Under the pieces are notes generated by a model. It saw only the letters and a program-made list of their open reading frames with translations, ran no database searches and was not told the origin of the DNA. 64,000 bases of DNA from an uncultured delta proteobacterium (GTDB lineage Bacteria > Myxococcota_A > Polyangia > Fen-1088): NCBI GenBank assembly GCA_963737265.1, contig CAVTRY010000007.1, positions 160,001 to 224,000 of the forward strand, in the 5' to 3' direction. How positions within the stretch are numbered: position 1 is the first letter of the stretch; every line of letters begins with the position of its first letter. The position numbers were made by a program, and so were the translations under genes. This document shows positions 4,594 through 19,300 of the stretch, in pieces.

Positions 4594-4709
4594 GAGTGAC
4601 CTAGAACGGCGCGGCCGAGTGGAAGCGGCCGGGGCGATGAAGTGGCTCGGCCTATGTCGGATGGCCGTGCAATTTTCGTGTCGGCGTTCTACGCTTGGCA
4701 CTGAATTCG

Positions 4710-7287
4710 ATGATCAAACATCCCGATTTTCTCGAGGTCTTCTCCAGCGTAGCAACTCGGCGAAGCAATCACCTCGCGGTCGAGGCCGACGAGGGCACGT
4801 TCACCTATGCCGAGCTGGATCGGCTCTCAAACCAGGTGGCGAATCGCCTGCGCGCCCTGGGGGTAGACCGGGAAGCACGCGTGGGAATCTCGCTGCCCCG
4901 AGGAGCGCGCGAGCTGGTCGCCATGCTTGCGACGGCGAAGGCGGGTGGGGCTTACGTCCCCCTCAATCCGACTTATCCGGAAGAAAGGCTGCGCGGCATC
5001 ATCGACGAAGTCTCTCCCCAGGTCGTGGTGGTAGAGCCCGGATCTGCACTGGCCTTGGGTCATGAAGGGCAGATCCTTCTTTTCCCCAGCATCGAGGCCG
5101 CGGCAGCGGGGTTCCCGGCAACCGCACCAACCGTCAAATGCGATCCCGATCAGCTGGTGTACATCCTGTTTACCTCCGGCTCGAACCGGACGTCCCAAGG
5201 GTGTGGAAATCACACGCGCAGCGTTCTCGAATTTTCTCGGATCGATGATACGAAGTCCAGGCATGGCGGAGAACGAGCGCCTTCTCGCCATCACGACGAC
5301 CTCGTTCGATATCGCCGGTCTCGAGCTTTTCCTGCCGCTCTGTGTGGGCGCCACCGTCTCGATCGCGGATTACGAAACCGCGCGAGATCCGCGCAAGCTA
5401 CGTCGTCGCTTGGAAGGCGCCGACATCTCCGTGTTGCAGGCCACGCCCGCCACCTGGCGCCTGCTGCTCGAAGCGGGCTGGCTCGTCGACAGAAAACTTC
5501 GAATGCTTTGCGGTGGCGAAGCCTTGTCTCCCGCGCTCGCCGACCGCTTGTTGGCCGCCGATGGCGAGCTGTGGAATCTCTATGGCCCGACGGAGACGAC
5601 GGTGTGGTCGTCGCTCGAGCGGATTCGGCCGGACTACGATCGCATCACCATCGGCAAGCCCATCGATGAAACCGAGATCTACGTCCTCGACGAAGCGTTG
5701 AATTCCGTTCCCATCGGTCAGGAAGGCGAAATTTGGATTGGCGGTCGCGGCGTGGCGCGCGGCTATTGGCGCCGCCCTGACTTGACGGCCGACCGCTTCG
5801 TGGCTCGCCCGCACATCGCTCCCGACGACAGAATCTATCGCACGGGCGATCTCGGCCGGCTACGCCCGGACGGACGTTTCGAGTGCCTGGGCCGCCTGGA
5901 CCGCCAGGTGAAGATCAGCGGCAACCGCATCGAGCTCGGGGAAATCGAGACGGTTTTGCGTTCCGTGGCGGGCGTGGGCGAAGCCTTGGTCGTTGCCGAT
6001 CGACCCGAGGGCGGCGAGCCCCGTCTTGTCGCCTATTGGACCGGCCCGGCGCAACGGAAGGATATCGTCGAAGCGGCCCAGCGCAGCCTTCCGGCCTACA
6101 TGGTCCCGGCGGCCTACGTCCAGCTGCAAACCTTTCCACTCAACACGAATGGGAAGATCGATCACAAGGCTCTGCCCAAACCCGAGCTCGTGGAGCAGCC
6201 CAGGCTGCCAGCCGGACGCCAGGCTACAGAAATCGAAGCCCGCATTACCTCGGTTTGGGCGCAGGTTCTTGCCATGGCGCATGTTCCGCTCAACCAAAGT
6301 TTCTTCACTCTGGGTGGAACGTCGGCCCTGGCCATCGAGGCGGTTGCCGGCATCGAGAAAGAGCTGGGCGTCGAGCTACCCTTGCTGGCGTTCTTCGATG
6401 CGCCGACGGTGGAAGGCATCGCAGCCAACGTTGGCAAGTTCTTCTCTCCCGACGCGCCCATCGTCGCTCGGCTGCGCCAGGGACATCCGGAGCGAGAGCC
6501 TCTGTTCTGCCTCTTTGGTGTGACGCTTTACCAAGCCCTGGCCCTTGAGCTCGCCGAAGATCGTCTTGTGTTTGGCGTGCATATCCCATTTCGCTACGTG
6601 CCCGGGCGCGATCCGCGCCCCACGCTCCCGGAGATCGGCCGACGCTACGTGGATTTGATCCGAGAGCACCAGAGCCACGGTCCTTACCACATGCTCGGAC
6701 TGTGCTTCGGCGGCATCGTCGCCTACGAGGTGGCGCGCCAGTTGGAAGCCGCAGGAGAAACCGTGGCCACGGTCACCATCATCGATGCCGTCCTGCCCCA
6801 TGCTATTCACATCGACAAGCGCAGGCGCTTGCGCTCTCACATCGCGCGGGCGTGGAAGAATCCAGGCGACTTCGTCCGCTACGTGAACAAGAAGCTAAAG
6901 GAACGCTACCATGGTTCGTTCTTGCACGACCTCGTTCAGACCTTGCGCGCTCCCGCGGGTGTTCCGCCAGCCATCGATCTTCCCGTCGACGGGCCGGAGG
7001 TCGAGGCCGAGGTTCATCGTTTCGCCGCCCAGCCCAGCAAACTAGCGACGCGGGTGCTGGTCGTGTGTGCGACCGACGAACCCAGGCCGGGATGGACGAC
7101 CGTGTCGGCCGACGAAGGCTGGGGTGATCGTGCTGACTCCGTGGTCATCTGCAACGTTCCGGGAACCCATCTCGGTGTCCTGAAGGATCCTCATGTGCGC
7201 CTTCTCGCTCGTGCGATCACCGAGGGCTTTCACCCTCAGCCGCATTGCGACGAGACGCCCGACCCGGGTATGCACCTCACGGATTAA
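4710..7287 (+). CDS. Stand-alone NRPS module A-T-TE with a +1 frameshift near 5185
   Basis: A3 motif FTSGS/TGRPKG split by one extra A; NLYGPTE, YRTGD, NGKID; PCP 'FFTLGGTS'; TE 'GLCFGG' with His in 'PGTHLG'. Confidence 0.88.
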
Positions 7288-7996: not shown

Positions 7997-8825
7997 CTAT
8001 TTGTGTTGAAGCGTGCCGGCCACGAAGTGTACGTAGCTGGAAGCCAGGACACGCATACCGAGGGGACTCAGGTGGCCGCCGTCGCTCGAAGTAGTCGGCG
8101 AACAAAGCGGGCGTGGGCTGGCCATCGATGGGGTAGGTTTCGCGGGTTCCAGCGAGATCAGTCGATTCGACGCGGGCGATGTCGAAGATGGGCTCGTTCG
8201 CGAATTCCGTTCGTAGCAAGCGATTGAATTGCTCGCGCTTGGCATTGAGCAGGTCGGACTCGGGGCGCATGCCGAGGAGGCGCTTAATGCGGGTCTTGAT
8301 GCCTTGTTCCCGGATTCTCAGCGGCGCGGTTGCGTGGGCGATGATGACGGCAGGATGGCGCGCCTTGATGCGAGCAATGGCGTGCTTGTAGTAGTCGAAC
8401 AGATCCCGCACGTCCGTGTCGCGGGTGAAGTCGGAGTAGCAGAATTTCATCAGCGCAAGGTGAGGCGGATTCCCTTGTAGACTGTCCAGCGCTGCCTCGA
8501 ACCCGTCGATCTTGGTCTTGGGACTTCCGTTCTTGCCCGGCCGGGTCTCGATGATGCCCGGTCCGGACTGACTTTTGCCGGCGTCGAGATCCTCGATGGG
8601 CCAGGTCGTGCCTGCCTCCTCAAGGAGCTGGCGTAGGCCGTCGAGGATGTTGGCACCTACCGACTGGTGCGCGAAAAGCACGCGCAGCTTGCTCGCTGCC
8701 GCAATAGACTGCTTGCTTTCAGGAGGCATGGACTGCTCCATCGTTGGGGAAGCGCCGCCGGGTGGCGAGCACGCGGCAGACACGGCGCCCGCGCTCGCCG
8801 CCAGCACGGCCAGAACCTCCGTCAT
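7997..8825 (-). CDS. Putative SGNH/GDSL-like lipoprotein, frameshifted near 8090
   Basis: Signal/lipobox-like 'AVSAAC', 'FAHQSVG'; removing one T restores 'ADYSSDGGHL' (DxxH) in the 7997 frame. Confidence 0.55.
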
Positions 8826-8934
8826 TCGCCGACCTGTCATCTTGCAACCGCTAGGCTGGCAGGAGTTTACCGCCGCCGGCCCGGAAACGGTCAAGCGAGA
8901 TCGCGGGGCTGGGAATCACCATTTCGACGAAAGA

Positions 8935-9064
8935 AATGGTCGCAGTGGATCTTTCCAAACCGGCGTCGGTTATGCTATCTCTTCGCGACCTTCCCGGCCC
9001 GCCTGGGCCGAGAACCCGATGGCTCATTGGGACAATGCATCACAAAGGCGAGCATAACTAGGCT
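8935..9064 (+). pseudogene. Relic 3' tail of a tyrosine integrase from an older element
   Basis: Reads MVAVDLSKPASVMLSLRDLPG versus MVAVDLSKPAAVVLSLRDAPG at 19082-19144; strong DNA similarity; same position relative to the att repeat. Confidence 0.8.
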
Positions 9065-9117
9065 AAATTAAAAGATAATGGGCGCATAGCTCAATTGGTA
9101 GAGCAGCGGACTCTTAA
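9065..9117 (+). repeat. attL: 53-bp direct repeat, 15-bp leader plus 5' half of tRNA-Lys
   Basis: AAATTAAAAGATAATGGGCGCATAGCTCAATTGGTAGAGCAGCGGACTCTTAA is identical to 19212-19264. Confidence 0.92.
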
Positions 9118-9229
9118 GCCAGATGCTGCAATGAGCCCTGATTAGACCGAGCGCTCACGCCAAACAAAACGCGCGCTTACGGCAGCCAGAGACGCCGCAT
9201 GATAGCCAGGAGTTATCACCTGTGCGGGC

Positions 9230-9252
9230 CACTTGGGCAGAACATGGGCAGA
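9230..9252 (+). promoter_or_regulatory. Putative integrase arm-type binding sites
   Basis: CACTTGGGCAGAacaTGGGCAGA matches CACTTGGGCAGAgaaTAGGCAGA at 19146-19168 at the other end of the element. Confidence 0.55.
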
Positions 9253-9570
9253 GCCGGTGCGCCAAACAGAGCGCGATCAGGGTGATGGCCGAGCTCGCCG
9301 AAATGCGCCACGACCCCGGCTCGGACGTCGCCGGACTCGCCCCCGCCATCCACTCCATCTGCACGCAGGGCACCTGTAGCTTCTAGACCCCTTCTTGGCA
9401 GGTTGTAATGGGGTCCCAGGAATGCGCGCCCTCGCGGCACCGTGATCTCCTCGTGCGCGCCTTCCGACTCTGGTGCGCGCTGTGAGCGGGCACACGTGGC
9501 GCAGGCATTCCTCTGTCCCGGCTATCTCCAACGAAAGGAAACCGGATACAATGTCTTGCTGAGGCCGTCC

Positions 9571-10053
9571 ATGAAGGAAAAGGAGCTCCGCGAGCGTATC
9601 GAGCAGTTCTTGCGCAAGACGGCCCGCAATGTCGTGGTGCCCGCGTCGGTGGGCTTGGGGCTGAGCGTTTCCGGCTGCGATCAACATGCGTTGCACGCCA
9701 CGGCCGCCGATGCGGGGGGAGATTCGGCCGCGCAGGTCTCGGACGTGGCGAAGGTTTCGACCTCGGACGTTCCGCCGTCGGCGCCGGAGGTCGGGGATGC
9801 GACTTCTCCGAACGACCTTCCGCTCGTGGCCCCGCCCTATCTGCTGGTCGCGCTCCCGCCAGATGATGTTGCCCCCGACCAGACCCGTGACGTTGAATCC
9901 GAAGCCGGAACGCAAGGCCCGGACGCCGCGGCCGACGCCTACGTGCCGATACCTCCACTCATTTACGTCTTCTATATGCAGCGGGCAGAGACGGACGCCG
10001 CGGCCCCGCCCGACGCGGCGGCGATGCTTTCCGCCTCTCCAGAGAAGGCGTAG
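9571..10053 (+). CDS. Lipoprotein-like putative radical-SAM substrate/precursor
   Basis: Charged leader MKEKELRERIEQFLRK, hydrophobic stretch, lipobox-like VSGC, acidic low-complexity body with Pro-flanked Tyr motifs; ends 3 bp before the rSAM start. Confidence 0.6.
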   Translation: MKEKELRERIEQFLRKTARNVVVPASVGLGLSVSGCDQHALHATAADAGGDSAAQVSDVAKVSTSDVPPSAPEVGDATSPNDLPLVAPPYLLVALPPDDVAPDQTRDVESEAGTQGPDAAADAYVPIPPLIYVFYMQRAETDAAAPPDAAAMLSASPEKA

Positions 10054-10056
10054 CTG

Positions 10057-11029
10057 GTGCTCGAAGTATTCCGGCGAATCGGGTTCGTACCGCGCGCCTG
10101 CGGCTGGGAGAATCACCCTCCGGTGCAACATGGGCTGCCGGCACTGCGGCTCGCTGGCCGGACGAGCTCGCGACGACGAGCTATCACACGACGAATGCCT
10201 GCGCGTGGCAGACGAGCTGGTGCAGCTGCGCTGCGGGCGCGTGACCCTGACCGGCGGCGAGCCGACCTTGCGCCAGGACTGGGACGTGCTCGGCGAGCGC
10301 CTGGCCAGGCAGAAGGTTCGGGTGGCCATCCTTTCCAACGCGTGGACGTGGAGCCCACGCGACGCTGAACGAGCCGCACGCGCCGGTCTGTCCAGCGTGG
10401 GCTTCAGTCTCGATGGACTCGAGCGCGAGCACGACGACTTCCGCGGCTCCGGCTCGTTTCCACGCGTTCTTGCGGCACTGCGCACGGCGCGGGACGTGGG
10501 TCTCGAGTTTGGTGTCAACACCACCATCTATCGTGGCAATCGTCATCAGCTCGTGGCATTGCGCGATCTGCTCGTATCCGGGGGCGTGCGCTCATGGCAA
10601 CTGCAATACGCCGTTGCCACCGGCGCCATGGCCCGCCATCGCGAGCTGGTATTGCCGCCCGAGGATGTGCTGTGGTTGGTGCCGCAAATCGCCGAATTCT
10701 GCCGGGAGCGCAAGGGCGGCATGTACATCGTGGCGAGCGATCACATCGGCTACTACGGGCGGCCTGAAGGCCATCTGCGCCAGGCCGACGTCAGCATGCC
10801 CTTCTGGTTGGGGTGTTGGGCGGGCATGCAGGCGCTCGCCATCGAGAGCAACGGCGACGTGAAGGGCTGTCTCTCGCTGCCTTCGGCCCGCCATGGCGAG
10901 ACCCGCTTCATCGACGGCAACCTGCGCACCACCAGCTTGCGCGCCATCTGGAACCGCCCCGCGGGATTCGCGTACAACCGCGGCTTTCATCCCCAGCAGC
11001 TTCGCGGGTTCTGCCGCGTGTGCCGCTAC
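10057..11029 (+). pseudogene. Radical SAM/SPASM maturase (PlpX/TIGR03913-like), frameshift near 10110 and SPASM truncated at ~11029
   Basis: 'WE/ITLRCNMGCRHCGS', 'TGGEP', 'CWAG..AIESNGDVKGCLSLP', 'GFCRVCRY', then homology stops abruptly. Confidence 0.8.
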
Positions 11030-11967
11030 ACGGCCGCGACCGACGTCTTCGATGCCGTCGTTGCCCTCGCCGGCTGCGGCAACAGCGACAGAGGCGCCGT
11101 ATCCACCTTGGCGTTCGGAACAGCAGGCTCCGCCGTCCTCGCGACTGCGCTGGTTGCCGGCGTGGTCGTCTTGACCTCAGCAGGTGGAGTCGCCGCTGGC
11201 CCGCCGGCTCGAAGCCGAGGCCGGCCTTGGGGGCGACATCGTGCGTTCCTTGGCCACCGTTGGTGCGGCTGCACGTGGGATGGTGGCAGCGGCAACGGCT
11301 CGAGGCGCAGACGTGGCGGCGAAAGTCCGGACAGTCGTGCTCGGCGGGGACGGCGTTGCTCTTGCCATGGCCAGTGCCCTGACCGACGGGACTTCCTTGG
11401 ACTGGGCCGGCGTGGATGGCAGGGGCGTACGGCCCAGCTCCATCTTGTCGTGCAACGGACGTTCGTGGTCGGCGCTTCGCTGCTCATGCTCCGCGCGCAC
11501 CCTTTGCTCGACCTCTCTCCGCACCTCTTGCTCAACCTGCAGCCTGATCTCCTTCTGCATCTGGGCTCGCGCCTTCTCGCTCTCGCCCTTCAGCTCGTTG
11601 CCCAGGGTGACACGCAACTCCTGCTCGAGCGTCGCTCGCAGCTCCATGTCCCGCGCCGCGAGCCTGTCCGCCTCCCTTGGCGTGCTCGCAAGCTCGGCAT
11701 GCGCCTCTGCGCGGAGCCGCATTCAGGGCACCTCCGTCGAACGAGGCCGATCCATGCCAACACCGAGGCCAGCGCCAGCGAGCCAGGGCCAAGTCCCCAT
11801 CCACCCACCGGCGACCAATGGGGCAAGGCGTTCGAAGGGTCCTGCCCGAGGGTGAGGGACCAGAGTCCTCCGATGCCCCCGGCGAACGCTATCGCGGCAG
11901 GAATCACCGGCGCCACGGCCGGCTTTCCGATCCCCGAGATGGCTCTTTGACATCGTCTGCAACGCAT
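11026..11967 (-). pseudogene. Membrane protein with CxxC...CxxC, coiled coil and Pro/Ala-rich tail, broken over three frames
   Basis: MRCRRC-hydrophobic segments-CPECG frame, then an E/R-rich coiled-coil frame, then a P/A/T-rich frame. Confidence 0.5.
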
Positions 11968-12281
11968 GTGTCACCTATTAGGCTATTCCTCATCCGACCG
12001 GTCGGCGAGAAATGAAAAAGGCTTACCGCGGTAGGGTCGGGGCTCATGCGATGGAGCAGTCAAGGTCTACGGAGCGAGCCGACGTGAAAACGATCACGAC
12101 GGAGAAGGACCTTGCACGACGTGAACGAACGGCGTTTCCGTCGGACAGGTTCGCCCTCATGTTGTCAGATTTCTGAGACTCTGTGGTCTGCGAGGCTCGA
12201 CGAATGGCGGACCAGCCAAGGTCTCGCACCTCTCCGCGTTTGGACCATGGCTTGCTACGCTTTCACCCGAGGAGAAAGTTG

Positions 12282-13205
12282 ATGCGCTCACTTACAACCA
12301 AGGGTGGACTCGGATTGGCCGTCGCATTGTGCTTTGCCGGATGTCAGAAGGAGGGCCTGGCGACCGCTCCGGATTCTGGCGTCTCGCAGGGTGGCGTTGT
12401 CGCCGTGGGCGGCACGATCGGAACGGGCGGGGCAGGCGGACTACAGGGAACTGGTGGTGAGCCTGCAACGGGCGGAAACTCGGGTCAGGGCGGCTTGCCA
12501 GGTGGCGTTGGTGGTGCGTCCGCAACGGGCGGGAACGCCGGTCAGGGTGGTTTGCAAAGCGCCGCTGGTGGCACCACTGGAGCCGGCGGCCGGTCAGCTC
12601 TGGGTGGGGCGATCGGAACGGGAGGCACTGCTGGTGCCGGTGGTGCAGGAACCGGTCGCGATGCGAGCGCAGACGCAGGATGTCCGTCGGGCTGGACGAT
12701 TTGCTGTGGTCAGTGCCTCAGCCCTCTGGCGGGGATCTGCGTCGGGCCCTGCCCAGCAACGGGCGGGTCGGGCGCGGCTGGTGGCGTTCACAGCGCCGGT
12801 GGTACTAGCAGCGGTGCCGGCGGAAGCCTTGGCGGATTGGGGGGCGCACCGGGCGATGGCGGCGGTCAACCAACGGACGGTGGGCTGACCTGCGCGGATC
12901 TACAGGCTCTCTACGCTGAGGCCCTACCAGCGGCACGAAGCTGCGATGTCAATGCGAGCGTACAGTGCCAACAATTGGTCAGTTCATCTTTGTCGGTGTG
13001 CCCCGTCTGCACGACCCACGTGAACGACTCTTCAACCCTAACTACCATCAAGGCAAGGTGGGTGCAGGCCGGCTGCGATACATCTGTCGCGGTCCTTTGT
13101 CCAGAAATTGCCTGCGTCCAGCCAGGATCGAGCGTCTGCGTCACAGTCGACGGTGGTAGCGGTACGTGCAACGAGGTCTACCTCATCTTGCCAACAGAGC
13201 CGTGA
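12282..13205 (+). CDS. Myxobacterial-type Gly-rich, Cys-rich lipoprotein
   Basis: Lipobox 'CFAGC', GGxxGTGG linkers, two Cys-rich modules; RBS GAGGAG upstream. Confidence 0.7.
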   Translation: MRSLTTKGGLGLAVALCFAGCQKEGLATAPDSGVSQGGVVAVGGTIGTGGAGGLQGTGGEPATGGNSGQGGLPGGVGGASATGGNAGQGGLQSAAGGTTGAGGRSALGGAIGTGGTAGAGGAGTGRDASADAGCPSGWTICCGQCLSPLAGICVGPCPATGGSGAAGGVHSAGGTSSGAGGSLGGLGGAPGDGGGQPTDGGLTCADLQALYAEALPAARSCDVNASVQCQQLVSSSLSVCPVCTTHVNDSSTLTTIKARWVQAGCDTSVAVLCPEIACVQPGSSVCVTVDGGSGTCNEVYLILPTEP

Positions 13206-18740: not shown

Positions 18741-19204
18741 GCGACATCGACCTAGGAAGGGCCGAGGAAGGATTGACTGGAGGCGTCGGACAACTCTTCA
18801 GGCCGACGTGCACATCACGCGGCGGGCGGCCCGACATCGGAAGTCCAGCCCAGTTCATCCGCCCCATCACCGTGCACAAGGCGCTTGCGAAAGCGCTGGT
18901 GGCTTGCGAGCTGCCCAAGATGACCCTGTACCAATGCACGCGTCACACGTTCGCTTCACAGTGGGTCATGAACGGCGGCAACCTGGAAGTGCTCGCCAAG
19001 ATCATGGGCCATTCCTCCACGTCCACGACCCAGCACTATGCTCACCTTGCCCCGGATTTTTTCGGGGCCAAGGCGTTCGATATGGTTGCAGTGGATCTTT
19101 CCAAACCGGCAGCGGTTGTGCTATCTCTTCGCGACGCTCCCGGTACACTTGGGCAGAGAATAGGCAGAACGCATCGAGACACCGCGGAGAAACAACTAGC
19201 ATAA
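18737..19204 (+). pseudogene. Tyrosine integrase, internally deleted (C-terminal catalytic part only)
   Basis: 'TRHTFASQWVMNGGNLEVLAKIMGHSSTSTTQHYAHL' retains the box II R, H and Y; only 155 aa. Confidence 0.85.
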
Positions 19205-19211
19205 GTACGCG

Positions 19212-19264
19212 AAATTAAAAGATAATGGGCGCATAGCTCAATTGGTAGAGCAGCGGACTCTTAA
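19212..19264 (+). repeat. attR copy of the 53-bp repeat, forming the 5' half of the intact tRNA
   Basis: Identical to 9065-9117; begins just after the integrase stop. Confidence 0.92.
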
Positions 19265-19299
19265 TCCGTTTGTTGTAGGTTCGATTCCTACTGTGCCCA
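19227..19299 (+). tRNA. tRNA-Lys (anticodon CTT), CCA not encoded
   Basis: Acceptor stem GGGCGCA/TGTGCCC, D arm, anticodon arm GCGGA-CTCTTAA-TCCGT, T arm GTAGG-TTCGATT-CCTAC. Confidence 0.97.
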
Positions 19300-19300
19300 C

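Follow-up and report, generated by a model that had tools for sequence, protein, structure and literature searches.

Spliceases are, to our knowledge, the only cellular route to beta-amino ketoamide residues in ribosomal proteins, and all of those described that we know of need a Tyr-Gly pair. They have found use in protein engineering and yield protease inhibitors, and their types are reportedly defined by Scott et al. 2022 (Chem). The closest parallels to the locus described here are the binary spliceotide systems, RhaX/RhaA and the RcsX/RcsA and RasX/RasA pairs of Rheinheimera, in which, according to passages of two papers, a radical SAM/SPASM enzyme adjoins its precursor and no separate RRE or Y protein is present (PMC11414181, PMC11626197), as is the case in our locus. 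The same passages give further points of likeness: models place an alpha-helix from the precursor's N-terminus on the enzyme and the Tyr site in the barrel, and Tyr is an invariant core residue. Parts of PMC11414181 also describe spliceases as acting at X-Tyr-Gly (XYG), the binary systems as having a leader helix and no Y protein, and an AlphaFold placement of XYG in the splicease active site; inhibition of proteases by ketoamide spliceotides is described in parts of PMC11626197. The other comparison is with the type I spliceotides, made by PlpX/PlpY/PlpA and by PcpXYA of Pleurocapsa. Our statements of likeness to RhaX and PlpX rest on such published descriptions and on NCBIfam scores, not on direct comparison of the sequences.

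The locus lies in a window of 64,000 nucleotides (the whole stretch of DNA that was analysed) from an uncultured member of the Polyangia. A first-pass annotation had seen here a two-gene unit with a 3-bp gap, whose first gene encodes a leader-like helix followed by a lipoprotein-type signal, lacks Tyr-Gly and has its four tyrosines in two islands. All of this holds. Gene 1 is an intact ORF of 160 amino acids, from ATG at 9571 to TAG at 10051-10053, and after a 3-nt gap the enzyme gene begins with GTG at 10057. The features are as follows.

9472-9570, plus strand: upstream region, part of the conserved block (homology with peat and permafrost contigs starts at 9472)
9571-10053, plus strand: gene 1, intact precursor lipoprotein of 160 aa (E=5.9e-26 against the leader HMM)
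9571-9630, plus strand: N-terminal charged helix, residues 1-20, proposed to be recognised by the enzyme and to activate it (conservation, complex model)
9631-9678, plus strand: hydrophobic segment and lipobox (VVVPASVGLGLSVSG-C, Cys36; conservation)
9814-9861, plus strand: core site 1, DLPLVAPPYLLVALPP, with Tyr90 (D82, P89 and Y90 invariant)
9934-9981, plus strand: core site 2, DAYVPIPPLIYVFYMQ, with Tyr124, 132 and 135 (Y132 invariant)
10057-10110, plus strand: first 18 codons of the radical SAM gene (GTG start, ...ACGWE), 100% identical to the N-terminus of the orthologue in genome G008
10111, plus strand: extra A that shifts the frame, missing in the G008 orthologue and in contigs of three runs (X2, X6, X18)
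10112-11029, plus strand: radical SAM/SPASM body, 306 codons, I19-Y324 (Pfam, NCBIfam, 95% identity to the G008 orthologue)
11030-11950, plus strand: unrelated DNA where the final 53 codons of the enzyme gene would be (relatives go on with sequence encoding GDVCRGGCTW)

Contigs from peat and permafrost runs, about 96% identical, align over 9472-11029, and the alignment with the G008 orthologue begins near 9522; a promoter scan of the upstream region found no sigma-70-like consensus. The gene 1 product runs from MKEKELRERIEQFLRKTARN through VVVPASVGLGLSVSGC into an Ala/Pro/Asp-rich chain, with 27 A, 17 P and 15 D among the 124 residues C-terminal of the Cys. Its only tyrosines are residues 90, 124, 132 and 135, located in APPYLLV and AYVPIPPLIYVFYM, and none of the four is followed by Gly, so that the X-Tyr-Gly motif is absent. 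A lipobox, V-S-G-C at residues 33-36, stands behind the hydrophobic segment. All 25 aligned homologues have Cys36, and the three positions before it (-3 to -1) hold only lipobox-type residues, with some A or S at -3. The n-region of this signal is a conserved charged helix of 20 residues; lipoprotein n-regions are usually shorter. The source genome has genes for both LspA and Lgt, with one match to PF01252 (128.2 bits) and seven to PF01790 above the cut-off (best 195.1 bits), three of the latter being adjacent pieces on contig C5. Searches of Pfam, NCBIfam and the ESM Atlas gave gene 1 no family or name, its 30 homologues are all unnamed, and no NCBIfam model matched the precursors at E<=0.1.

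This family of 30 proteins is small, and every member has the invariant N-terminal helix, the lipobox cysteine and 2-5 Pro-Tyr-[Leu/Met/Ile/Val] sites. In the 25 aligned homologues E3, R7, I10, F13, L14, A18, R19, V22, V23, P24, A25, S26, G28, C36, D82, P89, Y90 and Y132 are invariant. Across the family 69 of 80 tyrosines are followed by L, M, I or V and four by Gly, and 48 of the 80 are preceded by Pro. At site 1 (Tyr90, n=25) the next residue is L in 16 sequences, I in 3, M in 3, V in 2 and G in 1; at site 2 (Tyr132, n=25) it is L in 7, I in 5, M in 5, V in 4, G in 3 and H in 1. Individual precursors mix the types: the one at L060 has VPYGV together with PPYM sites, and at L032 a single precursor combines YG, YA and YM linkers. 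The observation is more than chance: the motifs of gene 1 return in these 25 homologues, and relatives have the pair at the same spacing.

The enzyme is splicease-like, as had been proposed from its motifs. Those motifs are present, and the body of the gene holds CX3CX2C (10124-10147), the GGE motif (10250-10264) and the first SPASM cysteines (10814-10882, CWAGMQALAIESNGDVKGCLSLP, and 11012-11029). The WEITL motif is split by a 1-nt insertion at 10111: WE is encoded in one frame (10057-10110) and ITLRCNMGCRHCGS in the following one (from 10112), and WEITL appears only when the insertion is read through. The window enzyme matches Radical_SAM (2.1e-25) and SPASM (2.3e-08) in Pfam. In NCBIfam it scores 209.7 bits with TIGR03913 (GDL motif peptide-associated radical SAM/SPASM maturase), 202.8 bits with TIGR04103 (nif11-class peptide radical SAM maturase 3) and 125.1 bits with TIGR04133 (rSAM_w_lipo), and the intact orthologue scores 247.7, 239.1 and 127.6 bits, against curated cut-offs of 591.75, 725 and 425 bits. 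The enzyme is therefore no member of TIGR03913, which the first-pass annotation took for the PlpX type, nor of the other two families, and function cannot be transferred by membership since its scores reach the cut-off of neither splicease-related family. PlpX itself is placed in InterPro IPR026482, not TIGR03913, in the relevant passage of a review. The first two models are nevertheless the nearest families, at about 40% of their cut-offs, and they stand far above other NCBIfam families: the intact enzymes of three sister clades reach 248-273 bits with TIGR03913 and 239-258 bits with TIGR04103, the next family giving 127-139. The third-best match, TIGR04133, shares the combination of a radical SAM/SPASM enzyme with a lipoprotein, judged by the name of the model, but at 125-139 bits against its cut-off of 425. 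Ten cysteines (C23, C27, C30, C253, C271, C319, C322, C328, C332 and C349) are invariant in 44 enzyme sequences, and the intact orthologues keep CX3CX2C and the full SPASM set. No splicease is found among the solved structures, where the best sequence matches are SkfB (1.2e-14) and PqqE.

Intact relatives of the damaged pair had been expected, and five genomes from the same genus of Polyangia have them. Within the clade formed by groups A, B and C, an ORF matching the leader HMM (E<=2.6e-17) lies directly upstream of 21 of the 23 enzymes; the two others are L018, where the contig ends too early, and L022, with only a C-terminal precursor remnant. Core type and enzyme clade correspond one to one (PY[LMIV] in 6 rows, YMAQ in 11, Gly-rich YG/YA in 6), and each of the three enzyme clades is monophyletic with support of 100/98-100. 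The precursors of the sister clades have the same leader and other cores, either Tyr-Met-Ala-Gln or the Gly-rich Tyr-Gly/Tyr-Ala type, the Gly-rich Tyr-Gly type being that of loci L013, L014, L021, L024 and L025. The core of outgroup clade D is DLPxxxDxYG. More distant relatives use Tyr-Gly, and among them are fusion proteins in which the enzyme is followed by a hydrophobic segment, a lipobox and Tyr-motif tails. No third conserved gene stands beside the pair, as the flanks differ in four loci (L009-L012), and the cassette occurs only in one genus of the Polyangia (Myxococcota) and in a neighbouring one. The first-pass reading was to be given up if the closest homologues lacked such precursors or conserved Tyr motifs, or if the enzyme grouped with unrelated SPASM families. 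It survives, because upstream precursors and Tyr motifs are conserved and change in step with the enzyme clades; the best matches of the enzyme are TIGR03913 and TIGR04103.

A complex model of the intact orthologous pair scored 0.91, a mark that 116 of 157 solved complexes but just 2 of 215 mismatched pairs attain, and the best of three controls scored 0.00. At least 83% of the contacts agree between runs, and the pLDDT of the partner is at least 54. The model is a prediction from our own alignments and says nothing on catalysis. On the precursor side the interface consists of residues 1-18, which have the lowest expected errors (0.8-1.7 A), and of residues 90 and 93-103 (DLPIMAVPYLVVLP), which contact barrel positions 61-65, 90-92, 112-115, 152-154, 178-183 and 225-229. 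The helix is thus predicted to dock on the enzyme with the first Pro-Tyr-Leu site inside the barrel, and with its docked leader helix and the lack of a Y protein the modelled pair would have the features of the binary type.

The reading that we lean towards, as the most likely, is that the tyrosine sites are modified in the cytoplasm, probably by tyramine splicing, and that the protein is exported afterwards. The precursor would consist of an amphipathic helix (the first 20 residues), a lipoprotein signal peptide with its lipobox Cys, and an acidic, Pro/Ala-rich and probably disordered mature part with 2-5 Pro-Tyr-[Leu/Met/Ile/Val] sites. The product of gene 2 would be a stand-alone, binary radical SAM/SPASM enzyme of the splicease lineage that works without a Y protein. 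In the cytoplasm the enzyme would dock the N-terminal helix, comparable to the leader helix of RhaA in the binary spliceotide systems, and each Tyr site would be threaded into the barrel and modified through 5'-deoxyadenosyl radical chemistry. The likeliest reaction would be excision of a tyramine equivalent, by which the residue before Tyr, mostly Pro, would become an alpha-keto-beta-amino (ketoamide) unit. The unfolded chain may then be exported by Sec and lipidated by Lgt. LspA would cut at the lipobox and remove the leader, and signal peptidase II would therefore double as the leader peptidase. The end product would be an electrophilic polypeptide anchored to the membrane, which could plausibly serve as a tethered protease inhibitor. 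The locus in the window would be a recently damaged copy of such a self-contained two-gene protein-modification cassette.

Several differences set the pair apart from the described systems. The binary spliceotide systems have an X-Tyr-Gly core, whereas the core here is Pro-Tyr-[Leu/Met/Ile/Val]; the mature chain here is protein-sized, about 120 residues with several sites, and the enzyme is below the NCBIfam cut-offs. Because the leader here contains a lipoprotein signal, the product would keep a lipid anchor instead of being set free as a peptide. With the type I spliceotides the enzyme shares its lineage as far as NCBIfam shows (TIGR04103, 239 bits), and the splice tags derived from PlpA (..YGVVFPG and ..YGLPI; PMC10533398, Table 1) have a hydrophobic context after Tyr similar to ..PYLVVLPP here. 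In contrast to that type, the locus has no PlpY-like gene, no Nif11 or NHLP leader and no Gly after Tyr, and its host is a myxobacterium. Our literature search, with the type tables of Scott et al. 2022 outside it, found no report of splicing without Gly at +1 or with Pro at -1, and, with that paper as a whole outside it, no paper joining the terms spliceotide and lipoprotein.

The pairing of enzyme and substrate leaves room for chemistry of another kind, which we regard as a somewhat unlikely but serious competitor. Tyr could be cross-linked (C-C or C-O) to a neighbouring residue, as by PqqE, streptide-type or three-residue cyclophane enzymes, or it could undergo oxidative decarboxylation, desaturation or epimerisation, in which case the aliphatic +1 residue would take part in the reaction rather than just being tolerated. 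The local context of the sites, with its aliphatic +1 residues and frequent preceding Pro, is indeed unlike XYG, and the enzyme belongs to neither of the curated splicease-related families and also matches other Tyr-modifying SPASM families, namely the mycofactocin maturase (113 bits) and PqqE (81.5 bits). Yet the scores for the two splicease-related families are about double those for any cross-linking family, and tyramine excision as set out in parts of PMC9811515 gives the +1 residue no chemical role. Three modelled contact positions (65, 91 and 229) consistently separate the non-Gly clades from clades C and D, which have Tyr-Gly, and this may point to a changed reaction; with about three independent clades it is only a lead. 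Tyr-Gly occurs together with Tyr-Met, Tyr-Leu or Tyr-Ala at homologous or neighbouring sites of the same precursors, so one reaction for all sites is simplest. The new chemistry raised in the first-pass annotation is a possibility that need not be invoked: ordinary splicing that tolerates other residues at +1 is at least as likely, because close paralogues and some family members have Tyr-Gly at homologous sites.

It is also conceivable, if improbable, that the Cys is not lipidated and the hydrophobic stretch is no signal peptide, the whole N-terminus being a classical RiPP leader and the product soluble or released by another protease. Conservation of the N-terminal 36 residues far beyond that of ordinary signal peptides, and the unusually long charged n-region, would fit this. 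Against it, the Cys is invariant behind only lipobox-type residues, the otherwise unrelated leaders of distant relatives retain the hydrophobic stretch and the small-residue/Cys junction, and the fusions set the same element between a cytoplasmic enzyme and a Tyr-motif tail; in the model, too, the low-error contacts of the leader come from residues 1-18 only, not from 19-36. Adjacency alone is weak evidence of an enzyme-substrate link, and the genes could be mere neighbours with the enzyme acting on something else. This is already disfavoured and appears very improbable, given that the pair is kept in nearly all clade members despite differing flanks, that precursor type tracks enzyme clade, that the complex model far outscores its controls and that natural fusions of enzyme and Tyr-motif tail occur.

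Taking the preferred reading of cytoplasmic tyrosine modification and export further, we tentatively propose a splicease-type lineage that has left the Tyr-Gly rule and acts on Pro-Tyr-[Leu/Met/Ile/Val] sites of exported lipoproteins (Tyr-Met-Ala-Gln in a sister clade). It would make alpha-keto-beta-proline-type ketoamides or perform a new tyrosine reaction, with the lipoprotein signal peptide as RiPP leader and signal peptidase II as leader peptidase, and would yield a lipid-anchored surface polypeptide, armed after translation. A natural clade with Pro-Tyr-Leu/Met and Tyr-Met-Ala-Gln cores would mean either a wider usable splice motif or a further tyrosine reaction, and this suggests that the enzyme family accepts more motifs, or performs more chemistry, than is known. 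A lipoprotein signal as leader, together with the natural enzyme-signal-core fusions, would offer a way to couple cytoplasmic radical chemistry with export and membrane anchoring, which would be of interest to RiPP and cell-envelope researchers. If this is true, published mining would have missed these systems, because a survey, as reported in part of a review, looked for Tyr-Gly-rich neighbours of the enzymes (PMC10849128).

The window copy had been judged probably dead, and its enzyme is probably inactive, although one of its two lesions may not be real. Homology to all relatives ends exactly at 11029, past which the open frame continues by chance to 11950, and the missing 3' end was not found anywhere else in the genome. 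The cysteine set is kept only to C322; the loss of three auxiliary-cluster cysteines (C328, C332 and C349) and of part of the modelled helix-docking surface makes a functional enzyme improbable. The frameshift at 10111 may be an assembly error, since other 1-nt indels occur in the assembly; of the two lesions, the truncation at the 3' end carries more weight. The contigs of one 100%-identical run (X1) cover neither 10111 nor the junction at 11029. Of 305 codons compared between the enzyme genes of the window and G008, 32 show a synonymous and 13 a non-synonymous difference, with 13 synonymous and 7 non-synonymous changes derived in the window lineage and 7 and 4 in that of G008. Over these 305 codons we saw no relaxed selection on the broken gene, so its damage is either of recent date or artefactual. 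No product is made from the window copy, unless the lesions are assembly errors.

The mobility proposed for the system was not borne out, as Pfam searches of eight neighbouring ORFs gave only SRAP and NRPS-type domains and no mobile-element family. Positions 8500-12500 held no tRNA or Rfam family, and a guessed tRNA 3'-end pattern gave no hit. A decayed tRNA-Lys copy lies upstream of the locus and the pair is found at non-syntenic locations among the relatives, which together give only a hint of past rearrangement.

We class the cassette as a variant of the splicease-type systems, in which a radical SAM enzyme excises a tyramine equivalent at X-Tyr-Gly, the difference being that its precursor cores lack Tyr-Gly. 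We do so because the published survey of PlpX-like enzymes was based on Tyr-Gly, and because no paper joining "spliceotide" and "lipoprotein" turned up in our literature search, outside of which that survey and its supplements lay. According to a review (PMC10849128), the survey screened for Tyr-Gly-rich neighbours of the enzymes and reported 189 genera and 27 confirmed enzyme-substrate pairs; cores without Tyr-Gly would be missed by such a screen. In the window the genes are arranged as follows.

9571-10053, + strand: gene 1, the precursor, an ORF of 160 aa from ATG 9571 to the stop codon at 10051-10053
From GTG 10057, + strand: radical SAM gene, first 18 codons (…ACGWE), in one frame
From ITLRCNMGCRHCGS at 10112, + strand: remainder of the radical SAM gene, in the next frame

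The first-pass annotation had described a two-gene unit, and indeed the stop of gene 1 is followed by 3 bases and then GTG 10057, with the motifs it quoted present; its remark that the enzyme motif can be read only after repair was likewise right, as this motif spans two frames. Gene 1 begins with a charged stretch, MKEKELRERIEQFLRKTARN, and a hydrophobic segment ending in V-S-G-C (Cys36). Ala (27), Pro (17) and Asp (15) are abundant among the 124 residues after Cys36, and the 4 tyrosines (90, 124, 132 and 135) fall within APPYLLV and AYVPIPPLIYVFYM. There are 30 homologues of gene 1, none of them named. An alignment of 25 shows the first 36 residues to be almost fixed (E3, R7, I10, F13, L14, A18, R19, V22, V23, P24, A25, S26, G28 and C36), and Y90 and Y132 to be the invariant Tyr sites. 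The residue at +1 of the 80 mature-region tyrosines is L in 32, M in 16, V in 13, I in 8, P in 5, G in 4, and Y and H in 1 each, while Pro precedes 48 of the 80; Gly follows Tyr in 1 of 25 sequences at site 1 and in 3 of 25 at site 2. Because of these +1 counts, we take an aliphatic residue to occupy the place of the canonical Gly. Further along the window, a 340-aa ORF without a Pfam match (12183-13205) combines a lipoprotein-type signal (..LAVALCFAGC) with a Gly-rich region and a C-terminal domain rich in Cys, which ends in ..NEVYLILPTEP, reminiscent of the PPYLILP sites in the gene 1 family.

The window enzyme carries the Pfam domains Radical_SAM (2.1e-25) and SPASM (2.3e-08). Intact enzymes score highest against two splicease-related NCBIfam families, TIGR03913 (247.7 bits, cut-off 591.75) and TIGR04103 (239.1 bits, cut-off 725), the latter presumably corresponding to InterPro IPR026482; TIGR04133 comes third with 127.6 bits. 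By these scores the splicease-related families are the clade's nearest relatives, yet with both values below the cut-offs it belongs to neither. In a review (PMC11002830), PlpX itself is assigned to IPR026482. No splicease structure was found among solved chains, where the top sequence match was SkfB (1.2e-14).

A leader HMM made from precursor N-termini identified an ORF directly upstream in 21 of the 23 enzymes of the closest clade, the two misses being L018, a locus at a contig end, and L022, a locus whose precursor is reduced to a C-terminal remnant. The sister precursors have a common leader and three core types, with the window copy belonging to type A.

Core types of the sister precursors and their enzymes
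Type A: core Pro-Tyr-[LMIV]; 6 enzyme rows; enzyme about 380 aa
Type B: core repeats [KRL]-Tyr-Met-Ala-Gln/Pro; 11 enzyme rows; enzyme with a C-terminal TPR domain
Type C: core Gly-rich repeats GG[TV][VL]-Tyr-Gly or Tyr-Ala; 6 enzyme rows; enzyme about 380-390 aa

These types were defined from the precursors first and then tested against the enzyme tree. Maximum likelihood on 57 enzymes recovers types A, B and C as one clade each (support 100/100, 100/99 and 100/98), and the three join in a clade at 100/100; the tree rows are close relatives and thus represent few independent events. The leader family of types A-C is narrow: of 201 genomes sampled from the class it turned up in 6, belonging to 2 of 110 genera. 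One genome of a neighbouring genus, G041, holds seven leader matches (L060-L066), several of which are short leader-only remnants; its type A-like precursor mixes VPYGV with PPYM sites, and its type B-like precursor has at least 5 YMA[IM]MPDA-type sites as well as YSAAMPDA and YAAPVP variants.

Outside the A-C clade the precursors have different leaders, still with a hydrophobic segment and a small-residue/Cys junction at the end. Those of L034, L036 and L037 have D[AL]LPxxxDxYG repeats, and that of L032 (genome G035) is a 410-aa lipoprotein with about 8 Cys-rich repeats, CxDGxDNDGDGxxDCxDxDC, parted by short linkers that contain one Tyr each, followed by G, A or M. In other Polyangia families (L030, L033, L035, L038 and L039) the enzyme continues, within one ORF, into a hydrophobic segment that carries a lipobox and then into a Tyr-motif tail, and so takes the leader's place. 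The fusion tails are acidic or Cys-rich, with Tyr motifs such as FFYGPVPP, CCDCDYMGPSP, NDYGVPIPMYGVP and PEYGIKP. At a further set of loci (L044-L050, L059 and L042) a 300-500-aa precursor lies ahead of a radical SAM/SPASM gene, with tandem enzyme genes in L044-L048. The N-terminal domain of this precursor spans about 110 aa; it also has an internal lipobox, a middle part that is Gly-rich or of another kind, and the C-terminal motif ..YKGVSFPD or ..VYLGVRFV.

For a complex model we paired the L010 enzyme, which is intact, with its cognate precursor, using custom alignments of 44 and 25 rows respectively. The predicted complex has a median score of 0.91, against 0.00 for the best of three controls. 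Of 157 solved complexes 116 attain this value, as do 2 of 215 mismatched pairs; three runs share at least 83% of contacts, with a partner pLDDT of at least 54. The confidently predicted interface is twofold: residues 1-18 of the precursor pack on residues 1-16, 233-259, 323-334 and 364-365 of the enzyme, and the DLPIMAVPYLVVLP site (precursor residues 90 and 93-103) meets enzyme residues at the strand ends of the barrel, among them the GGE region. A sequence search found no similar solved complex. The modelled helix docking and Tyr-site placement mirror the picture that Richter et al. (PMC11414181) give of spliceases, in which the enzyme binds a leader helix and takes the Tyr site into its active centre.

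In the proposed pathway the helix would recruit, and perhaps activate, the enzyme in the cytoplasm, and radical chemistry would modify each Tyr site. The unfolded acidic chain would then be exported and lipidated by Lgt, with LspA cleavage at Cys36 taking off the leader; Lgt and LspA genes are present in the window's own genome. As for the chemistry, splicing would be the most economical, because Tyr-Gly and Tyr-Met/Leu/Ala co-occur in single precursors, because the post-Tyr context of the gene 1 family resembles PlpA-derived splice tags (PMC10533398), and because tyramine excision, in the account of PMC9811515, does not involve the +1 residue chemically. Another tyrosine reaction is a serious rival; at the modelled contact positions 65, 91 and 229 the non-Gly clades have residues unlike those of the Tyr-Gly clades (type C and the outgroup clade D), which is no more than a lead towards it.

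The window copy is probably dead. It has an extra A at 10111 relative to the 95% identical orthologue in genome G008, with which homology stops past the Tyr codon at 11027-11029. Contigs from three peat/permafrost runs (X2, X6 and X18) contain a relative about 96% identical across 9472-11029, without the extra base at 10111, and continue beyond 11029 with sequence encoding GDVCRGGCTW, unlike the window. The window enzyme is without its last 53 codons (377-379 codons in relatives), including three invariant cysteines (C328, C332 and C349) and part of the modelled helix-docking surface beyond residue 324, and the missing 3' piece was not found anywhere else in the genome. X1, the sole run that is 100% identical to the window, reaches neither lesion. 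Its short contigs, otherwise identical, have one base fewer at 11212, a hint that the assembly contains 1-nt indel errors. An NRPS-type gene (4695-7287; AMP-binding, PP-binding, thioesterase) 5 kb upstream of the cassette has its adenylation domain split across frames near 5185, with profile positions 4-173 and 174-384 in separate ORFs; this gene could be a pseudogene, or the split could stem from an assembly indel. Because of these two cases the one-base indels in the window may be assembly errors. The 3' truncation is a structural difference and a stronger sign of inactivation than the 1-nt insertion. Codon comparison with G008 (32 synonymous and 13 non-synonymous differences in 305 codons; 7 non-synonymous and 13 synonymous window-derived, 4 and 7 G008-derived) shows no sign of long-term decay. 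On the minus strand, three overlapping ORFs (11026-11967) resemble one frameshifted gene, without a Pfam match, whose product would have CxxC...CxxC at the N-terminus, then a hydrophobic stretch, then a charged part resembling a coiled coil; the stop codon of one, at 11026-11028, lies beside the enzyme breakpoint.

The names given to near-identical proteins point to a Polyangia (Myxococcota) MAG as the source. Pairs with an intact enzyme gene occur in G008, G005, G012, G004 and G006 (L009-L012 and L020). The intergenic gap is 3-6 nt in four pairs (window, L010, L011 and L012). At L009, in G008, gene 1 has a 1-nt insertion after codon 5 and the enzyme gene is intact, the reverse of the window. 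The system had been called mobile, a reading that gained no support: a search of 8 neighbouring ORFs returned no family of mobile elements. It can fairly be called "often rearranged": the ORFs bordering the pair are not the same between loci, and the window flanks match elsewhere in relatives' genomes, for example at C25:384,763 and C25:415,844 in G008, with the cassette at C25:31,371. A decayed tRNA-Lys(CTT) duplicate, including about 150 nt of the upstream region, lies at about 8934-9140, some 430 nt before gene 1; it is a copy of 19079-19300 with a 13-nt T-arm deletion and uncalled by ARAGORN; the intact gene is at 19227-19300. The window's genome holds two further cassettes: a Gly-rich Tyr type on C11 (about 635.8-637.0 kb; L003/L004), where the enzyme gene is broken into two frames and the precursor has no leader, and a Tyr-Met-Ala-Gln type on C22 (about 153.0-154.7 kb; L002), which appears intact.
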